A DNA stretch of 64,000 nucleotides from Myxococcales bacterium (lineage in GTDB: Bacteria > Myxococcota_A > Bradymonadia > UBA7976 > UBA1532). Under the pieces are notes generated by a model, which saw only the letters and a program-made list of their open reading frames with translations, was not told where the DNA came from and ran no database searches. Of the stretch, positions 39,750-60,345 are shown piece by piece. A program made the position numbers and the translations under genes. The stretch spans positions 517,359 to 581,358 of the forward strand of contig JACKDP010000001.1 in assembly GCA_020633435.1 (NCBI GenBank), given 5' to 3'. Position 1 is the stretch's first letter. The number at the start of each line of letters is the position of its first letter.

Positions 39750-42595
39750 CGACCCCCTACCATGCGCAGTTCTGGGCCTACACGTTGACCGTACAGGGGT
39801 CGCCGGACTCGGTGGACGGCCTGTCGCGGGCCATCTCGAACGCCCGCGTAGACCTGAACCCGCACCAGGTAGACGCAGCCCTGTTCGCCCTCAAGTCGCC
39901 GCTGTCGAAGGGCGTCATCCTCGCCGACGAGGTGGGCCTCGGGAAGACCATCGAGGCCGCCCTGGTGATCTCGCAGCGATGGGCGGAGCGCCGCAGGCAC
40001 ATCCTCGTCGTGGTGCCCGCCTCGCTGCGGAAGCAGTGGCAGCAGGAGTTGTGGGAGAAGTTCTTCATCCCCTCGGTGGTGCTGGAGCGCAAGTCGTGGA
40101 CGCGGCTCCAGGCCGAGGGCAAGCCCAACCCCTTCGACCTCGGCGATCAGGTCGTCATCTGCTCCTACTACTTCGCCGCCAAGCACCGGGAGGCCGTGGC
40201 CCACGTCCCGTGGGATCTGGCCGTCATCGACGAGGCCCACCGGCTGCGAAACGTCTACAAGAAGGGCAACAAGACGGCGAAGGCCCTGTCCGCGGGCCTG
40301 GCCCACGCCACGAAGCTCCTGCTGACCGCGACGCCGCTCCAGAACTCGCTGATGGAGTTGTACGGCCTCGCCAGCGTCATCGACCCGCACCTGTTCGGTG
40401 ACCCCATCTCCTTCCGCGAGCAGTTCGTCCGCGAGGCGGACGAGGGCGTGCGGAACCGGCTGTTGAAGCAGCGCATCGCCGAGGTCTGCCAGCGCACCCT
40501 GCGGCAGCAGGTGCTGGAGTACGTCCGGTTCACGGAGCGCATCCCGGTGACGCAGGAGTTCTTCGCCAGCGACGCCGAGCAGCGGCTCTACGACGAGGTG
40601 TCCGAGTACCTCCGCCGCGACACCCTGTACGGCCTCCCGTCGGCCCAGCGGACGCTGATGACGATGGTGCTGCGGAAGCTGCTGGCCTCGTCGTCCTTCG
40701 CCATCGGCGGCACCCTCGACGGCCTGTTGTACCGCCTCCGGCAAGTGCAAGAGGACGTGCGCAAGGGCACCGCGGTCGCCCTGCACGATGCCGTGGAGGA
40801 CGACTTCGAGACGGTGGACGAGATCGAGGACGACTGGGAGGAGGACGAGGCCACCGACGCCAACGGCGACGACATCGACCCCGCCCTGCTGGCCGACGAG
40901 ATCGCCATCATCGAGGCGTGCTCCAAGCTCGCCGCGGGCATCCATTCCAACGCCAAGGGCGACGCCCTCCTGCGGGCACTCGCGCAGGCGTTCGAGCAGG
41001 CCGAGGCCGTGGGCGCCGCGAAGAAGGCGGTGGTGTTCACGGAGTCCCGGCGCACGCAGGACTACCTGTACCGGCTGCTGACCGCGAACGGCTACGAGGG
41101 CCGCGTCGTGATGATCAACGGCAGCAACAACGACGAGGCCGCCAAGGCCGTCTACGCGGAGTGGATGACCCGGCACGCGGACGACGGGGTGCCCACCGGC
41201 GCCCGCGCCGTCGATGTCCGGGCCGCCATCACCGAAGCGTTCAAGACCGACGCCACCATCCTGCTGGCGACCGAGGCCGCCGCGGAAGGCGTCAACCTCC
41301 AGTTCTGCTCCCTGGTCTTCAACTACGACTTGCCCTGGAACCCCCAGCGGGTCGAGCAGCGGATCGGGCGCTGCCACCGCTACGGCCAGACCCATGACGT
41401 GGTGGTCGTCAACTTCGTCAACGAGCGCAACGCCGCCGACCGCCGCGTCCTCGACCTGCTGTCCGAGAAGTTCAGGCTGTTCGAGGGGGTCTTCGGCGCC
41501 TCCGACGAGGTGCTCGGCGCCATCGAGTCCGGCGTGGACATCGAGCGGCGCATCGCGGCCATCTACCAGGGCTGCCGCACCGCCGAGGACATCGCCGCCG
41601 CCTTCGACGACCTGCGGGCCGACCTCGACGAGCAGATCACCGCGCAGATGAGCGAGACGCGGCAGCGCCTGCTCGACCACTTCGACGAGGACGTGCAGGC
41701 CCGCCTCCGCGTCCACCGCGACCTGGCCCAGGCGTCGCTCGACGAGAGGGGCCGGATGCTGTTGAACCTCACCCGGCACGAGCTTGGGGACGACGCCTCC
41801 TTCGCACCTGACCGGCCCCGGTTCGAGTACCACGGCACCGCGGCTCGTCGCGGGTGGTACAGCCTCGACTGGAAGGCGGCGGACGCCGAGGGCCTGGTCT
41901 TCTACCGCATCGACCACCCCCTCGCGCAGGGCATCGTCGAGCAGGCCCGCCAGCGACAGCTTCCCGTGCAGCACCTGGCCTTCGACTACGGCGCCTACGG
42001 CACGTCGGTCGCGGTGCTGGAGCCGTACATCGGTCGCCGGGGCTGGCTGGCGTGCAGCCTGCTGACGGTGAACTCGGTGGCCGACGAGCAGTTCGTCGTC
42101 CTGGCCGCGGTGACCGACGACGGCGAGGTGCTCGACGCCGAGTGGTGCCGACGCCTCATGCGCATCGGAGCCGCCGCCGAGGGAACGCCCGAGGCGCCCG
42201 CGGATCTGGAGCCCGCGGTCACCGGCCAGGTCGAAGGCCACCTGCGCGACGTGGAGGCCCGCAACGGGCGCTACTTCGACGCCGAGGTGTCGAAACTCGA
42301 CCGCTGGTCAGACGACCTCAAGCTCGGCCTGGAGCGGGAGTTGAAGGACTTGGACGCCGAGATCCGGGCGAAGCGCAAGGAGTCCGCGGTCGCCATCTCA
42401 CTGGCGGACAAGCTCACGGCGCAGCGGGACATCAAGGCGCTGGAGCAGCGCCGGAACCGCAAGCGGCGGGATCTGTACGAGGAACAGGACAAGATCGACG
42501 AGCAACGGGCAGCACTCATCGACGGGATCGAGCGGCAGCTTCGCACCACACATGCGGTGCAGCGCCTGTTCACCGTCCGGTGGAGCATCCGATAG
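39746..42595 (+). CDS. SNF2-family helicase
   Basis: 949 aa: LADEVGLGKTIEA (motif I), VIDEAHRLRN (DEAH), LLLTATPLQNSL, C-terminal helicase motifs and coiled-coil tail. Confidence 0.85.
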   Translation: MTTPYHAQFWAYTLTVQGSPDSVDGLSRAISNARVDLNPHQVDAALFALKSPLSKGVILADEVGLGKTIEAALVISQRWAERRRHILVVVPASLRKQWQQELWEKFFIPSVVLERKSWTRLQAEGKPNPFDLGDQVVICSYYFAAKHREAVAHVPWDLAVIDEAHRLRNVYKKGNKTAKALSAGLAHATKLLLTATPLQNSLMELYGLASVIDPHLFGDPISFREQFVREADEGVRNRLLKQRIAEVCQRTLRQQVLEYVRFTERIPVTQEFFASDAEQRLYDEVSEYLRRDTLYGLPSAQRTLMTMVLRKLLASSSFAIGGTLDGLLYRLRQVQEDVRKGTAVALHDAVEDDFETVDEIEDDWEEDEATDANGDDIDPALLADEIAIIEACSKLAAGIHSNAKGDALLRALAQAFEQAEAVGAAKKAVVFTESRRTQDYLYRLLTANGYEGRVVMINGSNNDEAAKAVYAEWMTRHADDGVPTGARAVDVRAAITEAFKTDATILLATEAAAEGVNLQFCSLVFNYDLPWNPQRVEQRIGRCHRYGQTHDVVVVNFVNERNAADRRVLDLLSEKFRLFEGVFGASDEVLGAIESGVDIERRIAAIYQGCRTAEDIAAAFDDLRADLDEQITAQMSETRQRLLDHFDEDVQARLRVHRDLAQASLDERGRMLLNLTRHELGDDASFAPDRPRFEYHGTAARRGWYSLDWKAADAEGLVFYRIDHPLAQGIVEQARQRQLPVQHLAFDYGAYGTSVAVLEPYIGRRGWLACSLLTVNSVADEQFVVLAAVTDDGEVLDAEWCRRLMRIGAAAEGTPEAPADLEPAVTGQVEGHLRDVEARNGRYFDAEVSKLDRWSDDLKLGLERELKDLDAEIRAKRKESAVAISLADKLTAQRDIKALEQRRNRKRRDLYEEQDKIDEQRAALIDGIERQLRTTHAVQRLFTVRWSIR

Positions 42596-42603
42596 GAGCG
42601 GGG

Positions 42604-44427
42604 ATGTCGAAGAAGACGAAGCTGGAACTGACCTGGATCGGCAAGGACAAGCGGCCCCGCCTGGAGCCGCGCATCCTGCTCGAAGATCCCGAACTGAGCT
42701 ACGCCGCCGACCATCGGGTTCGGCAGGGCGACATCTTCGACAACATGCTGATCCACGGAGACAACCTGCTGGCTTTGAAGGCGCTGGAGCAGGACTTCAC
42801 CGGCGCCTTCAAGTGCGTCTACATCGACCCTCCGTTCAACACCCAGCAGGCGTTTGAGCACTACGACGATGGCGTGGAGCACTCGGTCTGGCTGTCACTC
42901 ATGCGCGAGCGCCTCTCCATCGTCCACCGGCTCATGCACCCCGAGGGGACGCTGTTCGTCCACATCGACGACAACGAGCTTGGCTACCTGATCGTCCTCC
43001 TCGACGAGGTGTTCGGGCGCACCAACCGCGTGTCCATCGTCACATTCAAGCAGGGCTCGGCGACCGGCCACAAGGCCATCAACCCCGGCTGCGTGACGAC
43101 CACGAACTTCGTGCTGATGTACGCCAAGGACAAGGCAGCCTGGAAGCCGCGGAGGGTCTTCACGGCTAGGGAGCGAGACAATCGCTACAACCAGTTCATT
43201 CCGAACATCGGCGACCACCACTCCAAGTGGCGAATCGTGACGCTGATGACCGCCTTCGCCGCCAGCCAGGGGGTCACGGAGACACAGGCCAGGGGTCTGG
43301 CTCGCAAGCAGCCCGACCAACTGGACGAGTTCGTGAAGGACAACGGGCCGAGCGTGGTGCGTCTCGCAAGGCCGTCCTACGACGCCGTCAGCAAGGCTGC
43401 CCAGGCGCTCATCGACGAGTCGAACGCGAACCCCGAAGTGGTGTTCCACCTCCCGCGGGAGGGGCACAAGGACTTCTACTTCATCCGGGGCGAACGAATC
43501 CTGTTCTACAAGGACAAGCTCAGGGAGATCGACGGGCAGTACGTTGCGGGTGAGCCGCTCACGACGCTCTGGGACGACCTCCTCTCCAACAACTTGCACA
43601 ACGAAGGTGGGGTCAGCTTCCCCAAGGGGAAGAAGCCCGAAGCCCTGATCAAGAGGGTCATCGACCTGTCCACCGAGCCCGGTGACTGGGTGCTCGACTC
43701 GTTCGCAGGCTCGGGCACGACGGGGGCGGTGGCCCACAAGGCCGGTCGAAGGTGGGTGATGGTCGAACTCGGTGACCACTGCCATACCCATGTCCTTCCC
43801 CGGCTCCGAGCGGTTATTGACGGGGCCGATTCCAGCGGGAGCACGCAGGCAACCCGATGGAAAGGCGGCGGCGGCTTCCGCTTCTGCCGCCTCGCGCCCT
43901 CCCTACTGGAGGAGGACAAGTGGGGCAACTGGGTCATCAACCGGGCCTACAACAAGGAGATGCTGGCGGAGGCCATGTGCAAGATCGAGGGCTTCCGCTA
44001 CGAGCCGAGCCCGACCATCTTCTGGATGCACGGCCAGTCCACCGAGACGGACTACCTCTACGTCACCACGCAGACCCTGACCCACGAGCAGTTGCAGGTC
44101 ATCAGCGCGGAGGTCGGTGACGAGCGCACGTTGCTCATCTGCTGCTCGGCCTTCCGAGCGCGGCTCGACCAGTTCCCGAACCTCACGGTGAAGAAGATCC
44201 CCGCAGCGGTGCTCGAACGCTGCGAGTGGGGCAAGGACGACTACTCGCTGAACGTCCAGACGGTCATGGGAGAGGAGCCCGAGGCGCCCGAGCCTGAACC
44301 CGACCAGTCCGCGGGCGCCACCGTGCCGCCGCCATCGTCGAAGAAGCGCAAGGGCCGCAAGCCGAAGATGCAGGAGTTGCCGCTGTTCGCCGCGGCCCAC
44401 CATGGCAAGTCGGGAGGTGACCAGTGA
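42604..44427 (+). CDS. Type III R-M Mod-like N6-adenine DNA methyltransferase
   Basis: DPPF motif (CVYIDPPFNT) precedes the SAM motif (VLDSFAGSGTTG). Confidence 0.85.
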   Translation: MSKKTKLELTWIGKDKRPRLEPRILLEDPELSYAADHRVRQGDIFDNMLIHGDNLLALKALEQDFTGAFKCVYIDPPFNTQQAFEHYDDGVEHSVWLSLMRERLSIVHRLMHPEGTLFVHIDDNELGYLIVLLDEVFGRTNRVSIVTFKQGSATGHKAINPGCVTTTNFVLMYAKDKAAWKPRRVFTARERDNRYNQFIPNIGDHHSKWRIVTLMTAFAASQGVTETQARGLARKQPDQLDEFVKDNGPSVVRLARPSYDAVSKAAQALIDESNANPEVVFHLPREGHKDFYFIRGERILFYKDKLREIDGQYVAGEPLTTLWDDLLSNNLHNEGGVSFPKGKKPEALIKRVIDLSTEPGDWVLDSFAGSGTTGAVAHKAGRRWVMVELGDHCHTHVLPRLRAVIDGADSSGSTQATRWKGGGGFRFCRLAPSLLEEDKWGNWVINRAYNKEMLAEAMCKIEGFRYEPSPTIFWMHGQSTETDYLYVTTQTLTHEQLQVISAEVGDERTLLICCSAFRARLDQFPNLTVKKIPAAVLERCEWGKDDYSLNVQTVMGEEPEAPEPEPDQSAGATVPPPSSKKRKGRKPKMQELPLFAAAHHGKSGGDQ

Positions 44428-47400
44428 ACCGCCTCGTCAACACCATCTCGGGTCGTCTGAGCCTCCGGCCCCCGCAGCGCCAGTCGCTGGAGATCCTCGA
44501 CCGCATCTGCGAGATCGCTGACCCGACCAAGGCGACCGATCTCGCAACCGCGCTCGGGATCATCAAGTCCGAGTACCCGTCGGTCACCGACTTCGAGCGG
44601 GACTTCCCCTCGCTGTGCTTCGCCCTCGCCACCGGCGTCGGCAAGACCCGGCTCATGGGCGCCTTCATCAGCTACCTCTACCTGACCAAGCGAAGCCGCC
44701 ACTTCTTCGTGCTGGCGCCCAACCTGACCATCTACAACAAGCTGATCGCCGACTTCACCCCCGGCACGCCCAAGTACGTCTTCCAGGGGATCTCGGAGTT
44801 CGTGACCGCCCCGCCGGTCATCATCACCGGCGACAACTACGAGAGCGGCGTCGGCGTCCGAGAGGAGGCCCGGCGCCAGATGGGCCTGTTCCGGCCCGGC
44901 GGCGAGGATGCCGTCCACATCAACGTCTTCAACATCAGCAAGTTCAACAAGGACACGGGGGGCAGGAAGGGCTCGCCCAGGATGCGGCGCCTGTCGGAGT
45001 ACATCGGTGAGAGCTACTTCGACTACCTGGCCGGGCTCGACGACCTGGTGGTGCTCATGGACGAGGCCCACCGCTACCGCGCCGACGCGGGTATGAAGGC
45101 CATCAACGAGTTGAAGCCCATCTTGGGCCTGGAGTTGACGGCGACCCCCTTCACCGAGTCGGCGAAGGGGCCGGTGGCCTTCGGCAACGCCATCTACGCC
45201 TACTCGCTGGCCGAGGCCATCGTGGACGGGTTCGTGAAGGAGCCCGCGGTCGCCACCCGCAAGGACTTCGACGCCAGCCAACTCGACGACGCGAAGTTGG
45301 AACGCATCAAGCTGGAGGACGGCGTGCGCTTGCACGAGCAGGTCAAGGCCGACCTCCAAGCCTACGCCGCCAACACCGGGCGCCCCTACGTCAAGCCGTT
45401 CATGCTGGTCATCGCCCGCGACACGACGCACGCCTCGGCCCTGATCGACCTGTTCAAGTCCGAGACGTTCTTCGAGGGGCGCTACGCCGACCGCGTGATC
45501 GAGGTTCACTCGGCCCTCAAGGGCGAGGAGAAGGAGGAGACGGTTGAGCGGCTGCTGGCCGTGGAAGACCCCGCCGAGCAGACGGAGATCGTCATCCACG
45601 TCAACATGCTCAAGGAGGGGTGGGACGTAACGAACCTCTACACCATCGTCCCGCTGCGGGCCGCCAACGCCCGCACCCTCATCGAGCAGTCCATCGGTCG
45701 CGGCCTGCGGCTGCCCTACGGCAAGCGTGTCCGCAAGTACGGCCTGCCCCCCACCCACCCTGCCGACCGGCTCACCATCGTCGCCCACGACAAGTTCCAA
45801 GAGATCGTGGACGAGGCCAACCGCGGTGACTCCATCATCCGCCGCATCGACACCATCTACATCGACCCGGAGGAGGCCGCCGACGCTCCGAAGCCGGTCG
45901 AGGTGCCCCCGCTGGTCGAGCAGATTCTTGGCGGAGCCGACCGGCCTACGGTGCCGGGCCTCGGCCCCGCCCCCGCGGGTGACCCGGCCCAGGGCACCGC
46001 CCCCACCCTGCCGACCAAGAAGACGCCGACGTTCCTGACGCCCACGGCGAAGGCGGTGGCGAAGGCGACGCTGACGGCGATCACCAAGAAGACCACGTTG
46101 CCGTCGGCGAAGACGCTTCTGCAACCGGAGCAGCAGAAGAAGCTGGTCGAGGAGGTGAAGGCGCAACTTCCCGACCAGCAGGAGCTACCGGGCATCGAGT
46201 CGGAGATCGAGGAGGTCGTCAAGCAGGCCACCGAAGCCTACGTTGACCTCTCCATCGACATCCCCGAGGTGACCGTCGTGCCCACCGGCGAGGTCACCAT
46301 CGTCTACGCCGACTTCGACCTCGACACGTCCAAGCTGCCTGCGCTCCAGCCCGTCGAGCGGGACATCTACATCCAACACCTGGCGAGCCACGAGCAGCAG
46401 CAGTTGTCTTCCGGCGGTGGTGGTGTCGGCTACGAGCGGCGCCTGGAAGATCACGTTGTCCGGGCGCTCATCGACTTCGACGACGTGGACTACGACGGCA
46501 ACGCCGACCTGCTCTACAAGCTCGCGGGCCAGATGGTCGCCCACCTCCAGGGCTACCTGCCCGACGAGGAGGCCGTGAAGAACGTGCTGGTCTACTACCA
46601 GTCGCGGATCGGCAACCTCGTCCACGGCCAGATGCTGGCCCACCGGCACGAGTTGACGACCGGCTACGAGGTGAAGGTGCTGTCCGGGCACCGTCCGCTC
46701 CAGCCCTCGGTGATCAAGCTCAAGCCGAGCGAGTCCCCCCGGAACTTCCGGGCGCCGGTGGACGACAAGCGCCGCATCCCGCAGATGGTGTTCGGCGGCT
46801 TCTCGAAGTGCTTGTACCCGCTCCAGAAGTTCCACTCGGACTCGGAGCGCCGGTTCGCGGTGCTGCTGGAGATGGACAAGGCCGTGCAGAAGTGGGTGAA
46901 GCCTGCGCGGGCGAACTTCCAGATCGTCCTCAAGGGCGGCTCGCTCTACGAGCCGGACTTCGTGGTCGAGGCCGACGACGCCTTCTACATCGCCGAGGTC
47001 AAGGCCGAGGGCATGGTGCAGGAGGCCGACGTGCTGGCGAAGGCCGAGGCCGCCGCGGTGTGGTGCAGGTCGGCGACGCAGGAGGGGGCGGGCGCCAAGC
47101 CCTGGCACTACCTGCTCATCCCCGCGGACAAGATCGCCGAGAACGCCTCGTTGGCGTGGCTGGCGAAGCAGTACGAGCACAAGGCCAGCGCCCCCGCCGA
47201 GGTCGTGTCCGAGGACGCGGGCGCCAAGGTGCTGCCGTTCAAGAAGCTGGAGGGCACGGAGATCAGGCCCTTCGAGAACTGCGTGCCGCTCTACGCCGAC
47301 CTCAGGATCGCCGCGGGCCGCTTCGGCGAGGAGCTGGCCGTGGACGCGGTGCCCCAGCAGGGCGAGGTGGAGAACCCCGAGGACTACGAGTGGGTCGCCT

Positions 47401-47744
47401 ACCGGGGGAGTTCCCGGCCCCGTCGCGGCCTGTTCGTAGCCCAGGTGGTCGGCGAGTCCATGAACAAGCGCATCCCCAACGGCGCCTGGTGCGTGTTCAA
47501 CCTCGAACACGGGGCCGATGGCGAAGGTGAGATCGTCCTCGCCCGGCACGACGAGATCCACGACGGCGACCTCGGCCAGTTCACCGTGAAGTTCTACCAG
47601 CGCGAGGTGCTCGACGACGACGGCGTGCGGATCACGCTGCGGCCCTCGTCCAGCGACCCGCAGTTCAAGAAGCCCATCGTGCTGGAGAACCTGGCCGAGG
47701 GCGACCTGCGGATCGTGGCCGAGTTCGTCGAGGTGCTGCGGTAG
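44424..47744 (+). CDS. Type III Res-like helicase-endonuclease fused to a LexA/UmuD-like S24 domain
   Basis: 1106 aa: Walker A (ATGVGKTRL), DEAH (VLMDEAHRY), PD-(D/E)xK-like nuclease motif (EPDFVVEADDAFYIAEVKAEG), then about 150 aa resembling an S24 peptidase (GESM, TVKF); GTG overlaps Mod stop. Confidence 0.8.
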   Translation: MNRLVNTISGRLSLRPPQRQSLEILDRICEIADPTKATDLATALGIIKSEYPSVTDFERDFPSLCFALATGVGKTRLMGAFISYLYLTKRSRHFFVLAPNLTIYNKLIADFTPGTPKYVFQGISEFVTAPPVIITGDNYESGVGVREEARRQMGLFRPGGEDAVHINVFNISKFNKDTGGRKGSPRMRRLSEYIGESYFDYLAGLDDLVVLMDEAHRYRADAGMKAINELKPILGLELTATPFTESAKGPVAFGNAIYAYSLAEAIVDGFVKEPAVATRKDFDASQLDDAKLERIKLEDGVRLHEQVKADLQAYAANTGRPYVKPFMLVIARDTTHASALIDLFKSETFFEGRYADRVIEVHSALKGEEKEETVERLLAVEDPAEQTEIVIHVNMLKEGWDVTNLYTIVPLRAANARTLIEQSIGRGLRLPYGKRVRKYGLPPTHPADRLTIVAHDKFQEIVDEANRGDSIIRRIDTIYIDPEEAADAPKPVEVPPLVEQILGGADRPTVPGLGPAPAGDPAQGTAPTLPTKKTPTFLTPTAKAVAKATLTAITKKTTLPSAKTLLQPEQQKKLVEEVKAQLPDQQELPGIESEIEEVVKQATEAYVDLSIDIPEVTVVPTGEVTIVYADFDLDTSKLPALQPVERDIYIQHLASHEQQQLSSGGGGVGYERRLEDHVVRALIDFDDVDYDGNADLLYKLAGQMVAHLQGYLPDEEAVKNVLVYYQSRIGNLVHGQMLAHRHELTTGYEVKVLSGHRPLQPSVIKLKPSESPRNFRAPVDDKRRIPQMVFGGFSKCLYPLQKFHSDSERRFAVLLEMDKAVQKWVKPARANFQIVLKGGSLYEPDFVVEADDAFYIAEVKAEGMVQEADVLAKAEAAAVWCRSATQEGAGAKPWHYLLIPADKIAENASLAWLAKQYEHKASAPAEVVSEDAGAKVLPFKKLEGTEIRPFENCVPLYADLRIAAGRFGEELAVDAVPQQGEVENPEDYEWVAYRGSSRPRRGLFVAQVVGESMNKRIPNGAWCVFNLEHGADGEGEIVLARHDEIHDGDLGQFTVKFYQREVLDDDGVRITLRPSSSDPQFKKPIVLENLAEGDLRIVAEFVEVLR

Positions 47745-51587: not shown

Positions 51588-52072
51588 CCGAACATGCGCA
51601 GCTCGACATCCCCGCCTTGGTGGAGGAGATCAACGCCGCCGAGGACGACCCGATGTGGAAGGCGTGGACGAAGGATCGCCTGCGGCTCCAAGACCAACTT
51701 CACGAGCTTCGCGCCGTCCGAGATGCTCTCGCCCGCAAGCTCCGGGCATTGGCGCCCACGACGCCGGGCGGGGACAAGAGGCCCATGACCCGGCGGGAGC
51801 AGCGGATGGCGATGGGCGGCGGCGGCCTGTGGCCGCTGGCCCAGGCTGCGGAGATGCTGCCCATGAAGGACAACGAGGCGAGGGGCTGGCTGCGCAACGA
51901 AGGGCTCGTCGGCGACCTGGCCGGGCGTGAGGTCGTGCATTGGGGCCGCGTGCTCGACGCGCCCTACGCCACGAAGGATGAGGCGCCGTCGGTGCCTGCG
52001 AAGCAGGAGACACGGCGCCGGAAGCCGCTCCCGCGGGTGCGCCTCGGTGGCTCGTCGGGGGCGTCACGATGA
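51584..52072 (+). CDS. hypothetical protein
   Basis: ATG overlaps the previous stop; stop overlaps the integrase start. Confidence 0.4.
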   Translation: MTEHAQLDIPALVEEINAAEDDPMWKAWTKDRLRLQDQLHELRAVRDALARKLRALAPTTPGGDKRPMTRREQRMAMGGGGLWPLAQAAEMLPMKDNEARGWLRNEGLVGDLAGREVVHWGRVLDAPYATKDEAPSVPAKQETRRRKPLPRVRLGGSSGASR

Positions 52073-53202
52073 GCCCTCCAAGGAGTGCGCGACCCAAGCC
52101 CTTCTCGCTCGACATGATCAAGTGCCGGATCGTCCGCGGGCCGCACCCGGACGACCCGAACCGTTGGTACTGGCAGGCGGTCACCTACGGAGACGGTGAG
52201 CAGCGCACCATCTGGACGGGTTGGGGGTCGGTCGAGGAGGTGAAGGCCGCGCTGGCGCCGTTGCTGATGGGGATGCAGGCGGCCCCGTCGCGCCGTGAAG
52301 ACCGGGTGTCCACTGTGCAGGATCTCCTTGAGGTCTGGTTGGCGTGGCAACTCGGCCAACCGAACCTGAGCGAAGGGCGCAAGCTCAACTCGAAGAAGGA
52401 GGCAGAGCACGTCGCCGCCGTGATCGGTGATGTGCTCATCCTGCGGCTCGACACGACGACCCTGACGGAGTACCAGCGCGTGCGGCTGCGCGAGGGGGCC
52501 TCGACCGGCGTGATCCGCAACGAGATCAGCACCGTGATCCAGGCGTGGAACTGGGGCGGGGAGCGTGGGCTCGCACCGGAGCGGCGGCTGCGACGCCCCC
52601 GTTTGCAGCACAAGTCTGTGCGGAACGACTACGTTCCCGACCTGGTGGAGTTCTGGAAGGCCGTGGACGCGCTGCCCGACTCCAGACCCTGGGCTCGCAC
52701 CATGCTCCTCCTGCTGGGTGCGACGGGGGCGAGGCCAAGCGAGATCGCCGCCCTGACCTGGGAGGACATCCACTGGCGACGCCGTACCGTCCGTCTGGAC
52801 GGCAAGACCGGGAAGCGCCTGGCAGTCGTGAGCCAAGAGGTCTTGGACGAGTTGGCGCCGCACCGCCCCGACCCCGCGACTGGCCGCGTCCTCTCCGTGA
52901 GCTTGACCACGGCACGGGTGGACATCCGCAAGATCCTGCGGGACGCCTGCGTTGCGGCCAACGTGACGCCGTTCCTCCCGATGTCCATCCGCAAGATGGT
53001 CGAGAACGCGATGTTCGACGCTGGGGCCGACCCCGGCGTCGTCTCCCGGCAGCTTGGGCACACGCCGGAGGTGTCCTTGAGGCACTACCGCAGGGCGAAG
53101 TCGGCTCGCGTGGACGAGGTTCTCGCTCGTGCGGGCATCGGCACCAGGCCGGACGGCAACGTCGTGTCGCTGGCCGAGCACCGCAAGGCCAAGGACTCGT
53201 GA
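52069..53202 (+). CDS. tyrosine-type site-specific integrase
   Basis: Catalytic-domain motifs (LLGATGARPSEIAALTWEDI; LGHT...SLRHY) with the Tyr near the C-terminus. Confidence 0.85.
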   Translation: MSPPRSARPKPFSLDMIKCRIVRGPHPDDPNRWYWQAVTYGDGEQRTIWTGWGSVEEVKAALAPLLMGMQAAPSRREDRVSTVQDLLEVWLAWQLGQPNLSEGRKLNSKKEAEHVAAVIGDVLILRLDTTTLTEYQRVRLREGASTGVIRNEISTVIQAWNWGGERGLAPERRLRRPRLQHKSVRNDYVPDLVEFWKAVDALPDSRPWARTMLLLLGATGARPSEIAALTWEDIHWRRRTVRLDGKTGKRLAVVSQEVLDELAPHRPDPATGRVLSVSLTTARVDIRKILRDACVAANVTPFLPMSIRKMVENAMFDAGADPGVVSRQLGHTPEVSLRHYRRAKSARVDEVLARAGIGTRPDGNVVSLAEHRKAKDS

Positions 53203-53288: not shown

Positions 53289-53318
53289 CAACATCAAGTG
53301 GAAGCCGGGCAACGAGCC
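53289..53318. repeat. attR: 30-bp direct repeat, right copy
   Basis: caacatcaagtggaagccgggcaacgagcc, followed in frame by the likely original gene tail (...NEPTTNLYA, stop). Confidence 0.8.
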
Positions 53319-53406: not shown

Positions 53407-55497
53407 TCAGGACGTGAGGCGGTCGAAAGCCTGCTGGCGGGCCAGGAGCGTAGGCGACGGGGGCTCGCCCGCGAGGCGGTCGAAGCGGTCAGTGAGCAAC
53501 TTCTGCATCAGCTCGGTATGCGCCGCCGGCAGGCGCTCGAAGTGGGGCCAGAGGAGGTCCAGCGCCTCGTCCGCGGCGGCGCGGGCCTCGGCGGCCCGGC
53601 CGAGGGCAGCGAGGACGTCGCCGCTGCTGTCCATCGCGTTTGCAAGGTCAGGCTCGAACGCGTCCGGACGCGACGACGCAAGACGGCGATAGATACCCAC
53701 CGCCTCCGCCGTCGCTGACAACGCCTCCTCAAGACGACCCAACGATGAGATGTCACCGCCCAGGTTGTTGAGGCTCATGGCAAGGTCAGGCTCGAACGCG
53801 TCCGGACGCGACGACGCAAGACGTCGATACACGTCCACCGCCTCCGCCGTCGCTGACAACGCCTCCTCAAGACGACCCAACGATGAGAGCCGATTGCCCA
53901 GGTTGACCAGGCTCATGGCAAGGTCAGGCTCGAACGCGTCCGGTCGCGACGACGCAAGATGCCGATACACGTCCACCGCCTCCGCCGTCGCTGACAACGC
54001 CTCCTCAAGACGACCCAACGATGAGAGCCGATTGCCCAGGTTGACCAGGCTCATGGCAAGGTCAGGCTCGAACGCGTCCGGACGCGACGACGCAAGATAC
54101 CGATACACCTCCACCGCCTCCGCCGTCGCTGACAACGCCTCCTCTCGACGACCCAACGACGAGAGGTCAACGCCCAGGTTGTTCAGGCCACCCGCAAGGT
54201 TCGGCTCGAACGCTTCAAGACGCGACGACGCAAGACGGCGATAGATACCCACCGCCTCCATCGTCGCTGACAATGCCTCCTCAAGACGACCCAACGATGA
54301 GAGTCGATTGCCCAGGTTGTTCAGGCTCATGGCAAGGTCTGGCTCGAACGCGTCCGGACGCGACGACGCAAGACGGCGATCGAGACCCACCGCCTCCGTC
54401 GTCGCTGACAACGCCTCCTCAAGACGACCCAAAGATGAGAGCCGATTGCCCAGGTTGTTCAGGCTCGTGGCGAGGTCAGGCTCAAACGCGTCTGGACGCG
54501 ACAGTGCAAGACGGCGATAGATACCCACCGCCTCTGTCGTCGCTGACAACGCCTCCTCTCGACGACCCAACGAGGAGAGCCCAATGCCCAGGTCGGTCAG
54601 GCTCATGGCAAGATCGGGTTCGAACGCGTCCGGACGCGACGACGCAAGACGGCGATAGATACCCACCGCCTCCGCCGTCGCTGACAACGCCTCCTCTCGA
54701 CGACCCAACGACGCAAGGTCACGGCCCAGGCTGGTCAGCGCCCTCGCAACGTCTGCGTCCGGGCGTGCCGACGCGAGGCCTCTGTAGGACCCCACGGCTT
54801 CCGTTGACGCCGATAACGCTTCTGCGACCTCGTTCGCCAGGCCCATGTGCCCACTCCGCACCAAGGCCGCCAGCGCGCCAACCATCGCGTCGAAGCGCGC
54901 CGGATCCTCGGGAGCAAGCGCGAGCGCCGCTCGCGCCCGTCGCTCGGCGAGCTCCACCTCGGCAGGCGAGGCCCCATCTGACCGTTGCACGGGCGAAGTA
55001 ACATCGGGCTGCGAGACAGGAACCGGCGCGACCATCGGCTCAACAAGCAGGGTGTTGATAGACCAGAGATCGGGCGCAGCCAGCCGCACTACCGGCCGGG
55101 CCCACGCGGGCATGGCCACGACCAGGGCGTGCAGCCCGGATCGGCGCAGCGGCTCTCGGTGCTCGTTCCAGCGTTGTGCCGCGTTGAACCATGCGGTTCG
55201 CCAATCCTGCTCCGGACCAAAGGCCTCGCACCAGACCACGCCCCCTCTGGGCGCCGCCAGGATGCGACCGAGTGCGTCGCTCAGGTCCCCCGGATGCTCG
55301 CAGAGAACGGTCTCGATCGGCCAGCCACGGGCACCCGCCAGCGCCATCGTTCGGGCCCGAAGAATTCGAGCTGGAAAGCGGTCTGCCGCGACCACCGTCG
55401 CGATGACGAACCGATCTGCGAAATCCAGGAGATCACTGAGCAATTCCCAGGGCCGCTCCTCCAGGAGCGGCTGCGCTGCGAGGTGGTCTTCGGCCAC
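53407..55497 (-). CDS. TPR-like repeat protein (about nine 46-aa repeats), partner of the upstream NTPase
   Basis: Repeat unit RPDAFEPDLAMSLNNLGNRLSSLGRLEEALSATAEAV.VYRRLASS; GTG start 4 nt after the NTPase stop (ORF extends to 55554). Confidence 0.65.
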   Translation of the reverse strand: MAEDHLAAQPLLEERPWELLSDLLDFADRFVIATVVAADRFPARILRARTMALAGARGWPIETVLCEHPGDLSDALGRILAAPRGGVVWCEAFGPEQDWRTAWFNAAQRWNEHREPLRRSGLHALVVAMPAWARPVVRLAAPDLWSINTLLVEPMVAPVPVSQPDVTSPVQRSDGASPAEVELAERRARAALALAPEDPARFDAMVGALAALVRSGHMGLANEVAEALSASTEAVGSYRGLASARPDADVARALTSLGRDLASLGRREEALSATAEAVGIYRRLASSRPDAFEPDLAMSLTDLGIGLSSLGRREEALSATTEAVGIYRRLALSRPDAFEPDLATSLNNLGNRLSSLGRLEEALSATTEAVGLDRRLASSRPDAFEPDLAMSLNNLGNRLSSLGRLEEALSATMEAVGIYRRLASSRLEAFEPNLAGGLNNLGVDLSSLGRREEALSATAEAVEVYRYLASSRPDAFEPDLAMSLVNLGNRLSSLGRLEEALSATAEAVDVYRHLASSRPDAFEPDLAMSLVNLGNRLSSLGRLEEALSATAEAVDVYRRLASSRPDAFEPDLAMSLNNLGGDISSLGRLEEALSATAEAVGIYRRLASSRPDAFEPDLANAMDSSGDVLAALGRAAEARAAADEALDLLWPHFERLPAAHTELMQKLLTDRFDRLAGEPPSPTLLARQQAFDRLTS
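53510..54890. repeat. 138-bp tandem repeats (about 9 copies), coding
   Basis: The motif gtcaggctcgaacgcg recurs at 138-bp spacing; central copies nearly identical. Confidence 0.8.
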
Positions 55498-55501
55498 CGG
55501 G

Positions 55502-56800
55502 CTAGCTCGCGGCCTGTGATTCCAGACGGTCTGCGAGATCGAGAACGACGTCACGAACGATGGGGTGGACGTCGTACCACTCCGACCCGTTCTGGTAGCA
55601 GAGCACCAGGTGGCTGTCGAAGTACCGCGCCAGGCTGCCCAGGCCCTCCAGGTCCCTCAACTCGGCCTCGTGGGAGCGAGCGATCCGAGCCAGCCACCGA
55701 ACGTCCTCATGAGGAATCGGGGTGAACTGGGCCCGCAAGCGCTCCAGGGCAGCCCGGCGCGCGTCGGCCGATGCCGGCAGCGTGCGAGCCTCCAGGGCGA
55801 CGGTCTGCAGGACGCGGACGAGGTCGCGCAGGTGCCCGCCCGTCGCCAGAATCAGCTCCTCGAGAGCGTCGCGATCGCCCAGAACCACCGACCAGTCCGT
55901 GCGCTTGCCGACGAGCTGGACGAGACGCTCGATCCCAGGCGCGTAGGGCTGGCCGTCGCCATCGTCGACATAGGCCCGGACCTTCTGAGCGGGCAACGTC
56001 AGCAGGCCCGCTCCCGAATACGGGCTGCCGATGTTCGGCCGGCGGATGCGGAGCCAGGGCGGGACCGTATAGATGACATGGGTGGATGGCAGCTTGAGCT
56101 TGTCATCGTGGTCGGCGAACAAGCGTTCGAGTGACTCATGCACCCGCGCCTCGGTCTCATTGGTCCCACGGGCATGCTCGACCGAGTCGACGAGGACGAC
56201 GAGTGCCGTGCCCGGTCGGGCTGCCTCCAGCGCGAGTACACACTCCGCGACAAACCCACGCACCTCCCTGGCGAACGCGCCCAGGCTGGTCCCGAGCGCC
56301 TTCTGCACTTCCTGGCGAAAGAGCGGGTTGCTCTTGAGCTCTACCTTCATCCCCGCGAGGCTCACGTCCTTCAACGTGACGATGGTCCCGGTGACGAAGC
56401 CCCAGAGGCGCTGGCCGAGCGCGGCTCGCGCCGGGCTCTCCGGCAGGAGCGCTTCGTCGGTGAGCTTCTCGGCCAGGGCACCACAGAGGGCCAGCAGGAA
56501 GTCGGTGATGTCGATGGGGGTGTGGAGATCCAGGTAGTCCTCCACGTCGATGAGAACGACCGTGTAGTCCTCAGCGCCCAACTCACTGCGCAGACGCCTC
56601 AGCTCGGTGCTCTTGCCTGCGCCGCGGTAGCCGGACAGCAGCTGAGCACTCTCGCCCTCGGAGAACAGGATGGTCTCTTTGAGGCGAAGCACGACGTCGG
56701 ACTGGTCCTCGTACAGCGGGTAGTAGCGGGGGTCCTCCGGGTTCAACGGCACGTCAGCCATCTCTCGGAAGAAGCGCTGCCGCCGGTCGCGATCGGTCAT
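55502..56800 (-). CDS. P-loop NTPase (AAA/STAND-like)
   Basis: Walker A LLSGYRGAGKSTEL; Walker-B-like ALVVLVDSVEH; helical C-terminus. Confidence 0.65.
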   Translation of the reverse strand: MTDRDRRQRFFREMADVPLNPEDPRYYPLYEDQSDVVLRLKETILFSEGESAQLLSGYRGAGKSTELRRLRSELGAEDYTVVLIDVEDYLDLHTPIDITDFLLALCGALAEKLTDEALLPESPARAALGQRLWGFVTGTIVTLKDVSLAGMKVELKSNPLFRQEVQKALGTSLGAFAREVRGFVAECVLALEAARPGTALVVLVDSVEHARGTNETEARVHESLERLFADHDDKLKLPSTHVIYTVPPWLRIRRPNIGSPYSGAGLLTLPAQKVRAYVDDGDGQPYAPGIERLVQLVGKRTDWSVVLGDRDALEELILATGGHLRDLVRVLQTVALEARTLPASADARRAALERLRAQFTPIPHEDVRWLARIARSHEAELRDLEGLGSLARYFDSHLVLCYQNGSEWYDVHPIVRDVVLDLADRLESQAAS

Positions 56801-57447
56801 CGGGCCTCCGTCGTCCTCAGGTGCCGCGCAGTATAGGAGCCACGGTCGTCGGACACCACGGCATCGCGCACAGCCGTCATCGACCCTGGAACGCCGCCCA
56901 CGGGCTCATCGGGGCCCCCGAGGGCTCGTGGTACTGACGCGAACCCACCAGGGGGCAACTCCGGGACTCCCCTGAGGGCGTGGCCATCGAAGTGGCGGCC
57001 CGCAGGAACTGGCCACTCGATGGGCGGACCCGGGGGAAGGGGTACGCCGCCACCGGATCGGTGACGGCCGCTCGACAGCCTCCCCAGGCCCACTGCGAAA
57101 GGCAACGGCCTTCCTTTTTGTTTCGTCGACCGCTAGGAAAGGTTCCTCCGCAGCAGTAGGCAGCATGGACCTGGGCAGGACTTCTTCCGAGTGGCTCACC
57201 ACGAGCACGACAGCCGAGTAGGTCCAGGCGTTTCTGCCCGACCCCCCTGGAGCCGGCCCTCAGCCTGACGGCCGAGGACTCGCGGAGCGCGCCAACCGGG
57301 CACTCGGTGCCATCCTGTTTGGCGACTGCACCTGCCGCCTCACGCCTCCGCCTTCCGGCCAGCAGGGCCCAGGTGATAGCGTCGTCCCGCAGACCCCCGC
57401 CAGCAGGCGCGAGGTGTGCCCCCCTTGCCTGGTCCCAAGGAGGCGCC

Positions 57448-58032
57448 ATGAGCACGGTCCTCGTCCTGGCCAACGCCGTGGTCGACCAGCTTCCAGAGAC
57501 CCACAGCCCGGTTCCCTTCGTCGAAGCCTGGGCCGCGGTGGCGAAGGTCGAGGTCGTGCGCCAGGTCTTCGACGATCAGAACGATCTCAGCCAGCTGTTG
57601 AGGCGGTTCGCCACCGGGGGTCCCGCCCGGGTGGTCTGTCTCGCCGGCCATGGCGAGGGTGGCCACCCCGGCAGCCTCGGCCCGGGCATCGACCTGCCAG
57701 CCGCCCTGACAAGCGCCTTCCCGCGCGGAGCGCACCGGCCGCGCCGCCGAGGCCTGCTGACCGTGGGCTGCGAAGTCGACGCGGCGGCGGTCCTGGCCGG
57801 CACGGGCAGTGGCCTGGACTGGATCGCCGGCTGCCGCCGGCGGGTACCGTGGCTCGTCGCGGTCCACCAGGGCCTGCTGTTCCTTCACTCCCTCCTCGTG
57901 GGGCGCCCGACCGGAGACCCCGACCAGGTCCTGTCCACCATCTCCGCCGAGACGGCCGCCAGCTGGGTCTCCGCGGACCACCGGTCGCTGGTGGAGTTCG
58001 GCGTGACCGCGCGCCCGGTCGTCGAGCCGTGA
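57448..58032 (+). CDS. hypothetical protein with possible caspase-like His/Cys dyad
   Basis: GGAGG RBS before ATG; VVCLAGHGEGG and LLTVGCEVDA are spaced like a protease dyad (speculative). Confidence 0.4.
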   Translation: MSTVLVLANAVVDQLPETHSPVPFVEAWAAVAKVEVVRQVFDDQNDLSQLLRRFATGGPARVVCLAGHGEGGHPGSLGPGIDLPAALTSAFPRGAHRPRRRGLLTVGCEVDAAAVLAGTGSGLDWIAGCRRRVPWLVAVHQGLLFLHSLLVGRPTGDPDQVLSTISAETAASWVSADHRSLVEFGVTARPVVEP

Positions 58033-58081
58033 CCGCACTGGTCGCCCTCTCGGAGCCCGTTGATGTTTGCCTCCGGGCTCC

Positions 58082-58095
58082 CTACAGTTCTGTAG
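58082..58095. promoter_or_regulatory. perfect palindrome CTACAGttCTGTAG overlapping the antitoxin RBS (candidate operator)
   Basis: 6-bp arms with 2-bp spacer, about 15 nt upstream of the antitoxin ATG. Confidence 0.45.
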
Positions 58096-58109
58096 AAGGA
58101 GGTGCCCCC

Positions 58110-58400
58110 ATGTCCCGCAGCCAGATCTCCGCTTTCGTCTCCGACGAGACGCGCGCTCGCCTGGAGCGCTACGTCGCCGCGCACGGGATGAAGAAGGCCG
58201 CGGTCGTCGAGCGGGCGCTGCTGCACCACCTCCAGGCGCTCGAGGAGCTTCCCGCTGACATCGTGCTCCCGCCTCGCTTGCTCCTGGAACCCGATGGCTT
58301 CCGTCGCCTGGTCGAACGCGTGGAGGAGGCCGGTGAGCCGACCGCGGCGATGAAGGTGCTCTTCGGTGAGGTGGTTGACCCCGCGAACGATCCGACGTGA
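58110..58400 (+). CDS. ribbon-helix-helix antitoxin (DUF1778/TacA-like)
   Basis: MSRSQISAFVSDETRARLERYVAAHGMKKAAVVERALLHHL, RHH-like; stop overlaps toxin start. Confidence 0.65.
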   Translation: MSRSQISAFVSDETRARLERYVAAHGMKKAAVVERALLHHLQALEELPADIVLPPRLLLEPDGFRRLVERVEEAGEPTAAMKVLFGEVVDPANDPT

Positions 58401-58930
58401 TCGAGGTCCGTCAGCTCCGGGCTGCCGACGACCGGGCGGTGTTCTCGTGCGGCCAGCCCGACCTGGACCGCTTCTTTCTACGCTACGCCGGGCAGAACCA
58501 GTTCAAGCACCACCTCGGCGTCACCTGGGTCGCCGTCGACGGTGACCAGGGGGATCGCATCCTCGGCTTCGCGACAGTGAGCGCGTCGCAGATCGAAGCC
58601 ACCGGGCTGCCACCCGAGCTGCGCCGGCGCCTGCCCCGCTATCCCCTGCCCGTCCTCCGGCTCGCCCGCCTGGGCGTCGACCAGTCGGCGCAGGGGCGTG
58701 GCGTGGGACTGCTGCTCCTGAAGTCCGTGTTCGTCCTGGCTCGGCAGATGGCCCGGGACGTCGGGTGCGTTGGTGTCGTCGTGGACGCGAAGGCGGAGGC
58801 CATGGCCTTCTACGGGCGGTTCGGGTTCGAGGTCATCGACGGGCTGGTTGAAGGCGAGCTGGGCGACCGGCCGGTGGCGACCCCGATGTTTCTGCCGCTC
58901 GGCCTGATTCCAGCCATCGAGCCCGACTGA
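58397..58930 (+). CDS. GNAT-family acetyltransferase toxin (TacT/KacT-like)
   Basis: GNAT core LARLGVDQSAQGRGVGLLLL...AFYGRFGF; GTG overlaps antitoxin stop (GTGA). Confidence 0.7.
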   Translation: MIEVRQLRAADDRAVFSCGQPDLDRFFLRYAGQNQFKHHLGVTWVAVDGDQGDRILGFATVSASQIEATGLPPELRRRLPRYPLPVLRLARLGVDQSAQGRGVGLLLLKSVFVLARQMARDVGCVGVVVDAKAEAMAFYGRFGFEVIDGLVEGELGDRPVATPMFLPLGLIPAIEPD

Positions 58931-58972
58931 GACCAACGCGGGCGCCCCGCAAACCAGCCTACGAGGGTCCCC

Positions 58973-59659
58973 ATGGCCTTTGATCTGCGCCTGTCCGTTG
59001 ACCTCGCCGCTTGCCGCTCGGCCCTGGAGGCCCTTGCGGCATCGACCGGCTGCACCGTGGTGGTCTCTCCCGCCGGTGCCAGCTTCGGCCTGCCCCACGA
59101 CAATGATGCCGCGCGCGTGGCCTTCGCCGGCCTCGTCGCCCTCGTTCGGGCCCATGGCGGGCAGCTCCATGACCCCCAGGCAGGCGCCACCATCGACCTC
59201 GCCAACCCCGGGAGCTGGCCCCCGGCCTGGGTGGACCCCGCCGACGGCCTGCCGCCCCCACCCCGGGTGGTGGCGCAGGTGCAGGTCCGGCTGCGCACCG
59301 ACAACCTCGCGTATGCAAAGCACTTCTGGTGCGAGCGGCTGGGCGGGCGGGTGCTCTTCGCGGGTGACGCGCGGCTGGAGGTGGACCTGTACGGGGTGCG
59401 CGTGGTGCTGCACCTGGGCCCAAAGGCGCGGCCGAAGCCTGCCCTGGTGGGGCCCGGGGGGCAGGATCAGCTGCCCGCCACCTGCCTGACGCTCACGCTG
59501 CCCGCGGGGGACTACGACGCGCTGCTGCGGCGGCTGCGGGCGATGGCGCAGTACTTCTCGTTTCAGCCGCGGCCACGGCAGATCGACGGGGGCGCGCAGG
59601 CCGAGTCGTTCGTGGTGGCCGACTCCAACGTGAACTTCGTCGAGGTGCGGCGCGGCTAG
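58973..59659 (+). CDS. hypothetical protein, possibly VOC/glyoxalase-fold
   Basis: Weak resemblance only. Confidence 0.4.
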   Translation: MAFDLRLSVDLAACRSALEALAASTGCTVVVSPAGASFGLPHDNDAARVAFAGLVALVRAHGGQLHDPQAGATIDLANPGSWPPAWVDPADGLPPPPRVVAQVQVRLRTDNLAYAKHFWCERLGGRVLFAGDARLEVDLYGVRVVLHLGPKARPKPALVGPGGQDQLPATCLTLTLPAGDYDALLRRLRAMAQYFSFQPRPRQIDGGAQAESFVVADSNVNFVEVRRG

Positions 59660-59734
59660 CCGGCGCCCCGCGGCTTGCACCGACCCCCCTCCCCGGTCCA
59701 CCCTCCGGCCGATTTTCGACCGAGAGGAGTCCCC

Positions 59735-60286
59735 ATGGCCCACCCCTGGCACGACCTGCCCAACAACCCCGACACCTGCCACGAGTCGTTCAACGTCGTC
59801 ATCGAGATCCCGCGCGGGTCGAAGGTGAAGTATGAGATCGACAAGCCCACCGGCCTGCTGCGGGTGGATCGCATCTTGTACTCTTCGGTGATGTATCCGG
59901 CCAACTATGGCTTCATCCCCCGCTCGTACTGCGAGGATGGCGATCCGCTGGACGTGCTGGTGCTGGGATCGGAGGCCGTGCACCCGCTGTCCATCATGGA
60001 GGCGCGGGCCATCGGGGTGATGCACATGGAGGATCGCGGCGAGGCGGATGACAAGATCATCGCCGTGCATGTGCATGATCCGGCCTTCGCCGACTACACG
60101 GATGTGTCTCAGATCCCGAGTCATATCGGGCGCGAGATCAAGCGGTTCTTCCTCGACTACACCATCCTGGAGGGCAAGGTGGTGCAGGTGGATGACATTC
60201 AGGGGCGCGACGCCGCCATCGAGGTCATCCGGGAGGCGTTCGCCTTCTACCGCGCCGAGGAGACGAAGCTGCGCGGCTGGCGGTAG
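59735..60286 (+). CDS. ppa: inorganic pyrophosphatase
   Basis: FNVVIEIPRGSKVKYEIDK...DGDPLDVLVL, family I PPase; start at internal ATG with GAGGAG RBS. Confidence 0.9.
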   Translation: MAHPWHDLPNNPDTCHESFNVVIEIPRGSKVKYEIDKPTGLLRVDRILYSSVMYPANYGFIPRSYCEDGDPLDVLVLGSEAVHPLSIMEARAIGVMHMEDRGEADDKIIAVHVHDPAFADYTDVSQIPSHIGREIKRFFLDYTILEGKVVQVDDIQGRDAAIEVIREAFAFYRAEETKLRGWR

Positions 60287-60345
60287 CAGCGTTGATCCCC
60301 GGCGCATCTCGGTAGAGAGTGCCGCCAGGACGCGGAGGTGGTGCG

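Follow-up and report, generated by a model that had tools for sequence, protein, structure and literature searches.

Between positions 58082 and 58930 of a 64,000-nucleotide (nt) window of Myxococcales bacterium DNA (contig JACKDP010000001.1, positions 517,359 to 581,358), two overlapping genes stand behind a short perfect palindrome. From comparison with related loci we conclude that they probably form a self-contained, horizontally mobile and autorepressed type II toxin-antitoxin (TA) operon of the TacAT, KacAT and AtaRT class, in which a GNAT toxin is paired with a ribbon-helix-helix (RHH) antitoxin. We put the probability of this reading at about 0.83. Every property of the class that can be looked for in a sequence was found, except that the antitoxin falls below the threshold for membership of DUF1778. 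The parts of the locus are listed here with their positions in the window.

58060-58065, plus strand: candidate -35 hexamer TTGATG, proposed from the conserved TTG spacing in relatives
58082-58095, no strand assigned: palindrome CTACAGTTCTGTAG (CTACAG-TT-CTGTAG, a perfect 6+2+6 arrangement), putative operator bound by the antitoxin
58083-58088, plus strand: candidate -10 hexamer TACAGT, 17 nt after the candidate -35 and within the left half-site
58096-58102, plus strand: Shine-Dalgarno sequence AAGGAGG, 7 nt 5' of the antitoxin ATG, read from the sequence
58110-58400, plus strand: antitoxin gene, ATG at 58110 to TGA at 58398-58400, 96 amino acids, called from its open reading frame (ORF) and codon bias
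58397-58930, plus strand: toxin gene, GTG at 58397 to TGA at 58928-58930, 177 amino acids, GNAT acetyltransferase of the TacT/KacT/AtaT family

An earlier note, made from the letters of the window, had described ORFs of 96 and 177 codons that overlap by GTGA, and this was confirmed by the sequence and the ORF list. The GTGA at 58397-58400 is common to both frames, the toxin start overlapping the antitoxin stop, and from this overlap the two genes are predicted to be translationally coupled. Position 58082, where the note had let the module begin, is the first base of the palindrome and not the start of any gene. The upstream ORF ends with a stop codon at 58030-58032 and is followed by a 77-nt spacer to the antitoxin ATG. 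The GC content at the three codon positions was 0.77/0.42/0.86 in the antitoxin ORF and 0.78/0.44/0.88 in the toxin ORF, which is the coding signature of this high-GC (about 70-75%) genome. A longer antitoxin ORF from 57414 was rejected, since the GC content at the third codon position is only 0.55 in the in-frame extension 57414-58109, and 58110 was therefore taken as the start. An antisense ORF of 609 amino acids at 58478-60307 was also discarded; it has the GC pattern seen on the strand opposite to real genes. Identical copies of the locus are present in six independent metagenome contigs, and on the contigs with an identical antitoxin independent gene calls gave the same ORFs of 96, 177 and 228 amino acids.

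The toxin and the antitoxin

The 177-residue toxin matched the Pfam families Acetyltransf_7, Acetyltransf_1 and Acetyltransf_10 above threshold, an assignment limited to generic GNAT families, and NCBIfam gave weak matches to RimI and AAC families. The toxin was also searched with phmmer against the PDB. The closest relative was TacT3 (6g96, 7ak9 and 7zg5; E 1.1e-20, residues 11-143 for the closest match), followed by KacT (5zgn, E 1.5e-14), a chain of the TacT2-TacA2 complex 7ak7 (E 1.9e-12) and AtaT (6ajm, E 3e-10; 6gtq and related entries, about 1e-10). Chains of 5fvj (E 2.8e-10), 7f36 (E 2.9e-10) and the AtaT2-AtaR2 complex 7f37 (E 1.1e-9) were found as well. The best 16 matches (E 1e-20 to 6e-8) contain every named GNAT TA toxin in the list, and the first generic GNATs appear at E 0.018 or worse.

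The residues known to matter in TacT3 are present in the window toxin. Its Y139 is aligned with the catalytic tyrosine, Y145 of KacT and Y143 of TacT3; two KacT entries differ exactly at this position (AFY versus AFF), and in the TacT3 Y143F crystal form it is a phenylalanine. R91 is aligned with R94 of TacT3, the arginine of the tRNA groove that is needed for the toxicity of TacT3. In TacT3, Y143F and R94E each abolish toxicity (Rycroft et al. 2018, PMC5959882). The acetyl-CoA loop reads QGRGVG at residues 98-103. Among 26 toxin homologues with 61-80% identity, R88, R91, G100, G102 and G104 do not vary and the conservation of Y139 is 90% or more, and the window toxin retains every invariant residue of the family together with Y139. 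By these alignments the toxin is a GNAT of the TacT family with an intact active site, and the enzyme appears to be active. The TacT/KacT type proposed in the earlier note is thus borne out by the PDB matches at E 1.1e-20 to 3e-10 and by the aligned tyrosine and arginine.

The antitoxin is predicted to have an N-terminal RHH domain that binds DNA, at about residues 4-46, and a toxin-binding region at about residues 55-86. Searched singly, it gave little: phmmer against the PDB returned designed proteins and ribosomal protein S4 only, all meaningless, the Pfam search returned sub-threshold noise (DNA_pol_A_exoN, E 0.017), and the RHH_1 profile (PF01402) was not matched. Its family, 196 clusters at E <= 1e-3, is nearly all without Pfam annotation and has the consensus QISAFVS-ETK-RLERY--AHG-KKA-LVE-ALLHHLQALEELPADVIIPPRL----SFE-------P-EPT-AMK-LF, in which A8, G26, E34, A36-L38, H40, L47, P48 and R56 are invariant. 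When 35 members were compared with Pfam, 20 had weak matches to TacA1/DUF1778 (best E 3e-4) and 14 matched the CopG-type RHH_1 (best E 3e-8). The family profile reached AtaR and KacA in the PDB at E 0.07-0.18 with its C-terminal part only, where residues 55-86 lie on AtaR 51-81. In KacA, residues 61-88 are the region that interacts with KacT, and KacA blocks the binding of acetyl-CoA by KacT (PMC6698736). An alignment of the family with 17 DUF1778 proteins of the AtaR family by hhalign covered 72 columns including the beta-strand, with a probability of 81% and E 1.2e-5.

A monomer model of the antitoxin by AlphaFold2 (AF2; mean predicted local distance difference test score, pLDDT, 76.6) contains helices at 12-25 and 29-46, which correspond to the two helices of an RHH domain and come after a short N-terminal segment, then an extended linker and helices at 61-72 and 79-84. 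When this model was searched with Foldseek, the best nine matches were all antitoxins of GNAT toxins (AtaR, TacA2, TacA3, KacA and AtaR2); each match is non-significant when taken singly (E 0.06-0.7, template modelling score 0.3-0.4), and the ranking alone is informative. We conclude from the alignments and the model that the antitoxin is probably an RHH protein and a distant relative of DUF1778, not a threshold-level member. The claim that it is an RHH antitoxin is therefore supported by the modelled helices, the Foldseek ranking and the hhalign probability, with the caveat of the DUF1778/TacA1 threshold.

Conservation of the pair and of its operator

Relatives of the locus were collected by scanning one genome per GTDB species with the antitoxin as the seed. 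The scan gave 234 loci with an antitoxin relative, and 80 of these were fetched. They come from at least seven phyla and include Myxococcota, Gammaproteobacteria, Alphaproteobacteria, Acidobacteriota, Planctomycetota, Desulfobacterota, Nitrospirota and others, the Gammaproteobacteria being purple sulfur bacteria such as Thiocapsa, Thiodictyon and Lamprocystis. With tblastn, 76 of the 80 loci were found to have a GNAT gene immediately downstream in the same orientation, and in 72 it is apparently intact. The toxin is truncated or frameshifted in the other four (L004, L011, L013 and L072), and the four loci without a tblastn match (L031, L059, L060 and L074) retain a recognisable 5' remnant of the toxin just past the antitoxin stop codon. 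The pair was originally present in all 80 loci, and in eight the toxin has decayed beside an intact antitoxin. Such an asymmetry would be expected of a GNAT that is harmful when unopposed; in a set seeded with the antitoxin, a decayed antitoxin beside an intact toxin could not show up. In L060 and, less clearly, in L074 the operator has degenerated too, which suggests that the whole module decays after the loss of the toxin.

Co-conservation, on which the earlier note had made its reading depend, was also found in the reciprocal direction: all three toxin homologues on long contigs have a small Pfam-less gene upstream, whose product shares about 50% identity with the window antitoxin. A tblastn search of the 80 loci with six proteins from the flanks of the pair in the window found no homologue, which argues that antitoxin and toxin move as a unit. 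A three-gene module that includes the ORF of 228 amino acids downstream of the toxin was rejected, since this ORF is absent from all of the distant loci. One relative (L092) lies on the 417-kb plasmid pTs417 of Ca. Thiodictyon syntrophicum (NZ_CP020371.1), where the pair occupies 2501-3306 beside an AbiEi/AbiEii module. RefSeq annotates its antitoxin as a 71-residue 'hypothetical protein' with a start about 70 nt too far downstream, and its toxin as 'GNAT family N-acetyltransferase'.

The palindrome CTACAGTTCTGTAG occurs once in the 64-kb window even when one mismatch is allowed, with 0.04 matches expected and matches in 4 of 100 shuffles. In nearly every related locus a sequence with the consensus TCTACA-N4-TGTAGA lies about 25-35 nt 5' of the start codon. 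Of 79 usable upstream windows of 90 nt, 68 contained CTAC-N6-GTAG with at most one mismatch, compared with 0.017 expected per window from the background density of the motif in the remainder of these loci. Conservation is 93-100% at the core bases, and most of the surrounding intergenic positions have no consensus. Since this contrast holds across phyla, the palindrome is, by sequence conservation, a phylogenetic footprint and not residual homology. In agreement with the earlier note, the conserved half-sites in unconserved surroundings fit autoregulation by the antitoxin. The half-sites are 10 bp apart from centre to centre, a spacing that, by analogy with the KacAT-DNA and AtaRT-DNA complexes, would be suitable for two RHH dimers bound to the same side of the helix. 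None of the papers in the collection searched for the operator motif contains it.

The position of the palindrome differs from what the note had proposed. The perfect palindrome is real, but it does not overlap the ribosome binding site: it ends at 58095, abuts the Shine-Dalgarno sequence that begins at 58096, and overlaps the likely -10 hexamer instead. Among the 68 related loci, 62-74% have the bases of a TTG at -22 to -20 from the C of CTAC, an offset that gives a 17-nt spacer to the TACANT hexamer forming the left half-site in relatives. Many relatives have the full TTGACA, for example TTGACA-N17-TACAAT in L008 and TTGACA-N17-TACATT in L091. For the window, transcription is predicted to start near 58095, with a leader of about 15 nt that bears the Shine-Dalgarno sequence.

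The right half-site is flipped in eight loci (L022, L025, L031, L037, L047, L048, L051 and L089), and L059 has a form that is 1 nt shorter. These loci belong to Acidobacteriota (Thermoanaerobaculia), Polyangiaceae and metagenome bacteria such as L089. Their operator, TCTACA-TTTT-TCTACATG, is separated by about 17-18 nt from a perfect TTGACA -35 on its 5' side and leads straight into the ATG, an arrangement that suggests a leaderless mRNA with a direct-repeat operator. In the window itself, an 8-bp GC-rich inverted repeat, GGAGCCCG / CGGGCTCC, at 58052-58059 and 58074-58081, brackets the candidate -35, with a 14-nt loop and no T-run. In the closest relatives, L001 and L002, no such repeat can be seen in the 45 nt 5' of the start codon. 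It may terminate the upstream ORF weakly or have arisen by chance.

The palindrome might be no protein operator at all. It might form an RNA or DNA hairpin that terminates transcription of the upstream gene or affects mRNA stability, or be the -10 box of the promoter and nothing more. Its place 50 nt past the stop codon of the upstream ORF (58032), the second inverted repeat just 5' of it and the coincidence of its left arm with a -10-like hexamer would agree with this. The loop in the window, however, is only 2 nt long and no T-run follows. The core is conserved as sequence and not as pairing: the inner positions 4 and 9 show no covariation (AT 37, AC 9, GT 7, GC 7), and the eight loci with half-sites in direct orientation would have lost any hairpin. 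Rfam found nothing in 57-60 kb. On loop size, non-covariation, the directly oriented loci and the Rfam result the hairpin or terminator was rejected. The right arm GTAG(A) lies outside the -10 hexamer and is as conserved as the left. We regard both versions as very improbable, and take the palindrome to be the putative operator of the TA module.

It is also quite unlikely that the two genes are a regulator-enzyme operon, in which a CopG-type repressor controls a non-toxic housekeeping or resistance acetyltransferase acting on an antibiotic, a metabolite or a protein. The generic Pfam matches of the enzyme, its weak RimI and AAC matches, the RefSeq labels of the homologous pair and the sub-threshold antitoxin would all allow it. 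The PDB matches speak against it, since every named GNAT TA toxin in the list is among the best 16, ahead of any generic GNAT, and R91, the counterpart of TacT3 R94, is invariant. A pure repressor would have no use for a C-terminal half that can be aligned with the segment by which AtaR and KacA bind their toxins, and the toxin decay seen next to intact antitoxins in 8 of 80 loci and the mobility of the cassette without its neighbours are further points against such an operon. Chromosomal TA loci often decay, and ten percent of the related loci have broken toxins, so the locus might be a remnant that has decayed or been domesticated here, with, for example, a toxin that is inactive and an antitoxin kept as a transcription factor only. 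Here, however, both ORFs are full length, the toxin has all invariant residues of its family, the palindrome is perfect, the Shine-Dalgarno sequence is strong and the six independent metagenome contigs carry identical copies, which makes a remnant hardly probable.

Several results weigh against a TA operon of the TacAT class. Toxicity, neutralisation, tRNA acetylation and DNA binding are inferred for the whole subfamily. PADLOC gave no model above a weak partial match for the pair. The window antitoxin has no Pfam or NCBIfam family above threshold; DUF1778/TacA1 (PF08681, COG4453) was undetected in it even at E<0.1, and its sole NCBIfam signal was a sub-threshold RelB-like match of 20 bits. 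The Foldseek matches to GNAT antitoxins fall short of significance one by one, as given above. In the monomer model residues 6-9 form a short helix instead of a strand and the beta-ribbon is absent, which could be explained if the ribbon forms only in the dimer. A promoter scanner called no promoter in 57-60 kb, because the window hexamers match the consensus at 8/12 positions and the threshold is 9/12.

On its own, this would be a routine TA locus. What is new here is an unannotated subfamily and a newly described conserved operator; the kind of module is well known. Tentatively, and at rather less than even odds, we propose that the relatives form an unrecognised cross-phylum GNAT/RHH clade, with an antitoxin that has diverged past DUF1778 detection, a near-universal operator TCTACA-N4-TGTAGA placed in its own -10 region, and a direct-repeat sub-lineage with TCTACA-N4-TCTACATG. 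If this is true, an operator built into the -10 box would make the two-gene unit fully portable, and the antitoxin tetramer would tolerate both inverted and direct arrangements of its subsites. The omega repressor reportedly tolerates both as well. Annotation pipelines miss the subfamily, and the alignment together with the operator motif could annotate about 230 GTDB-species loci and more in metagenomes. The conserved 16-bp operator and the conserved beta-strand Q5-I6-S7-A8 also offer a natural case for the study of RHH-DNA recognition and of a change in half-site orientation.

Neighbouring genes and the integrative element

The GC content drops from about 0.72-0.82 in the flanks to 0.64-0.71 across 37-60 kb (0.65-0.71 at 53-60 kb). 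Within this region a 30-nt direct repeat, 29/30 identical, brackets a 15.8-kb element of lower GC content. The neighbouring features are as follows.

36934-37512: AhpC/TSA peroxiredoxin gene, with the left repeat copy within its 3' end
37467-37496 and 53289-53318: the two copies of the direct repeat CAACATCAAGTGGAAGCCGGG(G/C)AACGAGCC
39080-42595: DrmD-like SNF2 helicase, element cargo of the defence set (PADLOC E 7e-203)
41854-44427: type III methyltransferase, element cargo of the defence set (PADLOC E 9e-186)
44424-47744: type III restriction enzyme, element cargo of the defence set (PADLOC E 7e-221)
52069-53202: tyrosine integrase, adjoining the right repeat copy
53407-55554, minus strand: TPR protein of 715 amino acids, with eight tandem repeats of 138 nt (46 amino acids) at 53558-54823, 62-80% identical in DNA
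55502-56800, minus strand: AAA/STAND-like ATPase of 432 amino acids, with weak AAA_16 and nSTAND_NTPase5 matches, preceding the TPR gene in their operon
57307-58032, probable start ATG at 57448: orphan ORF of 194-241 amino acids, directly upstream of the TA locus
58973-59659, plus strand: ORF of 228 amino acids, 43 nt past the toxin stop codon
59675: inorganic pyrophosphatase gene (ppa), after the ORF of 228 amino acids

Each copy of the repeat is followed by a different short tail and a stop codon. Together with the place of the left copy, at the 3' end of the peroxiredoxin gene, these differing ends indicate that the element entered the 3' end of a gene for a protein and not for a tRNA; no tRNA gene was found in the window. 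Residues 981-1099, at the C-terminus of the type III restriction enzyme, match the LexA-like family Peptidase_S24, which makes the enzyme an unusual fusion. As listed, the ORFs of the helicase and the methyltransferase have about 740 nt in common, and one start or both have therefore probably been miscalled.

The TPR protein and the ATPase, encoded immediately to the right of attR, the right end of the element, may form a pair with a role in conflict or defence. For the 194-residue upstream protein no Pfam, NCBIfam or PADLOC family was found above threshold and no relative in the PDB; its motifs 'CLAGHGEGG' and 'LLTVGCEVD' are, as motifs alone, reminiscent of a caspase/CHAT-type His-Cys dyad. 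The 228-residue protein likewise lacks PDB relatives and reached the threshold of no family in Pfam, NCBIfam or PADLOC, and its C-terminal half gave a sub-threshold Glyoxalase/VOC match only (E 0.0017). This ORF stands beside the TA genes in metagenome contigs of the same species and in none of the 80 distant loci, which places it outside the TA module. The earlier note had argued that the accessory region extends past attR. This holds in part: from the low GC content at 53-60 kb and the defence-like gene content it is plausible that accessory DNA continues to about 59.6 kb. The TA locus would then mark the stretch right of attR as further accessory DNA.

Proposed mechanism and known systems

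The mechanism that we propose is taken from characterised relatives (PMC5959882, PMC6698736, PMC9177977). The toxin dimer would use acetyl-CoA to acetylate the alpha-amino group of charged tRNA and so block translation. The C-terminal helices of the antitoxin would wrap around the toxin and prevent the binding of acetyl-CoA, and two antitoxin dimers bridged by toxin would assemble into a T-A2-A2-T heterohexamer. In this complex the beta-ribbons would enter successive major grooves at the two half-sites, CTAC and GTAG, whose spacing is 10 bp. As the -10 hexamer lies within the left half-site, binding would exclude RNA polymerase and repress the operon, and an excess of toxin or the degradation of the antitoxin would lead to derepression. 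Possible biological roles are the addiction to, or stabilisation of, the accessory region, or abortive infection in a defence neighbourhood.

Among the known systems, TacAT3 of Salmonella enterica (6g96, 7ak9 and 7zg5) provides the closest solved toxin. It shares with the window toxin the tyrosine, the arginine and the QGxGxG acetyl-CoA loop, its genes have the same antitoxin-then-toxin order, and TacA3 is among the top Foldseek matches of the antitoxin model. The window antitoxin is below the threshold of DUF1778, of which TacA3 is a canonical member. TacT3 is specific for Gly-tRNA (PMC9177977), and as TacT3 is the nearest solved relative, Gly-tRNA is a weak possibility, at most a guess, for the target of the window toxin. 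The toxin clade may have a substrate specificity of its own, even for a target other than tRNA. A non-tRNA target has reportedly been found for PacT.

KacAT of Klebsiella pneumoniae and AtaRT of E. coli O157 (5zgn, 6ajm and 6gts) combine a GNAT toxin with an RHH antitoxin, as is proposed here for the window locus. In both, a T-A2-A2-T heterohexamer sits on a palindromic operator that spans the transcription start, and the operon is autorepressed with conditional cooperativity (PMC6698736). The toxin-binding segment of AtaR and KacA can be aligned with residues 55-86 of the window antitoxin. The operators differ: that of KacAT is TGTACGGTTA-T-TAACCGTACA (TGTACGG...CCGTACA), compared with TCTACA-N4-TGTAGA in the window family. 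The DNA-reading beta-strand differs as well. In KacA, R8, D10 and R12 are the residues that read the KacAT operator (PMC6698736), and in the hhalign alignment their positions are occupied by Q5, S7 and F9 of the window antitoxin, a replacement that fits an operator sequence unlike that of KacAT. Unlike in KacAT and AtaRT, the N-terminal domain scores as CopG-type RHH_1 in 14 of the 35 relatives of the window antitoxin.

The CopG, Arc and omega-type RHH repressors have neither a toxin-binding tail nor a toxin partner. CopG can be superposed on the antitoxin model's N-terminal domain at 1.3-1.5 A over 31-37 columns, with non-significant E values of 5.7-8.8. A pair of RHH dimers fits well on subsites separated by one turn of the helix. 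VcaAT, in which a DUF4065 antitoxin is paired with a GNAT toxin, belongs to clade C of Ovchinnikov et al. 2022 (PMC9177977). It resembles the window locus in that a TacT-family toxin is combined with an antitoxin that is not detected as DUF1778. The VcaAT antitoxin, however, has an unrelated fold and may act via proteolysis, whereas that of the window is still predicted to be an RHH protein and a distant relative of DUF1778, which points to divergence of the antitoxin and not to a swap of partners.

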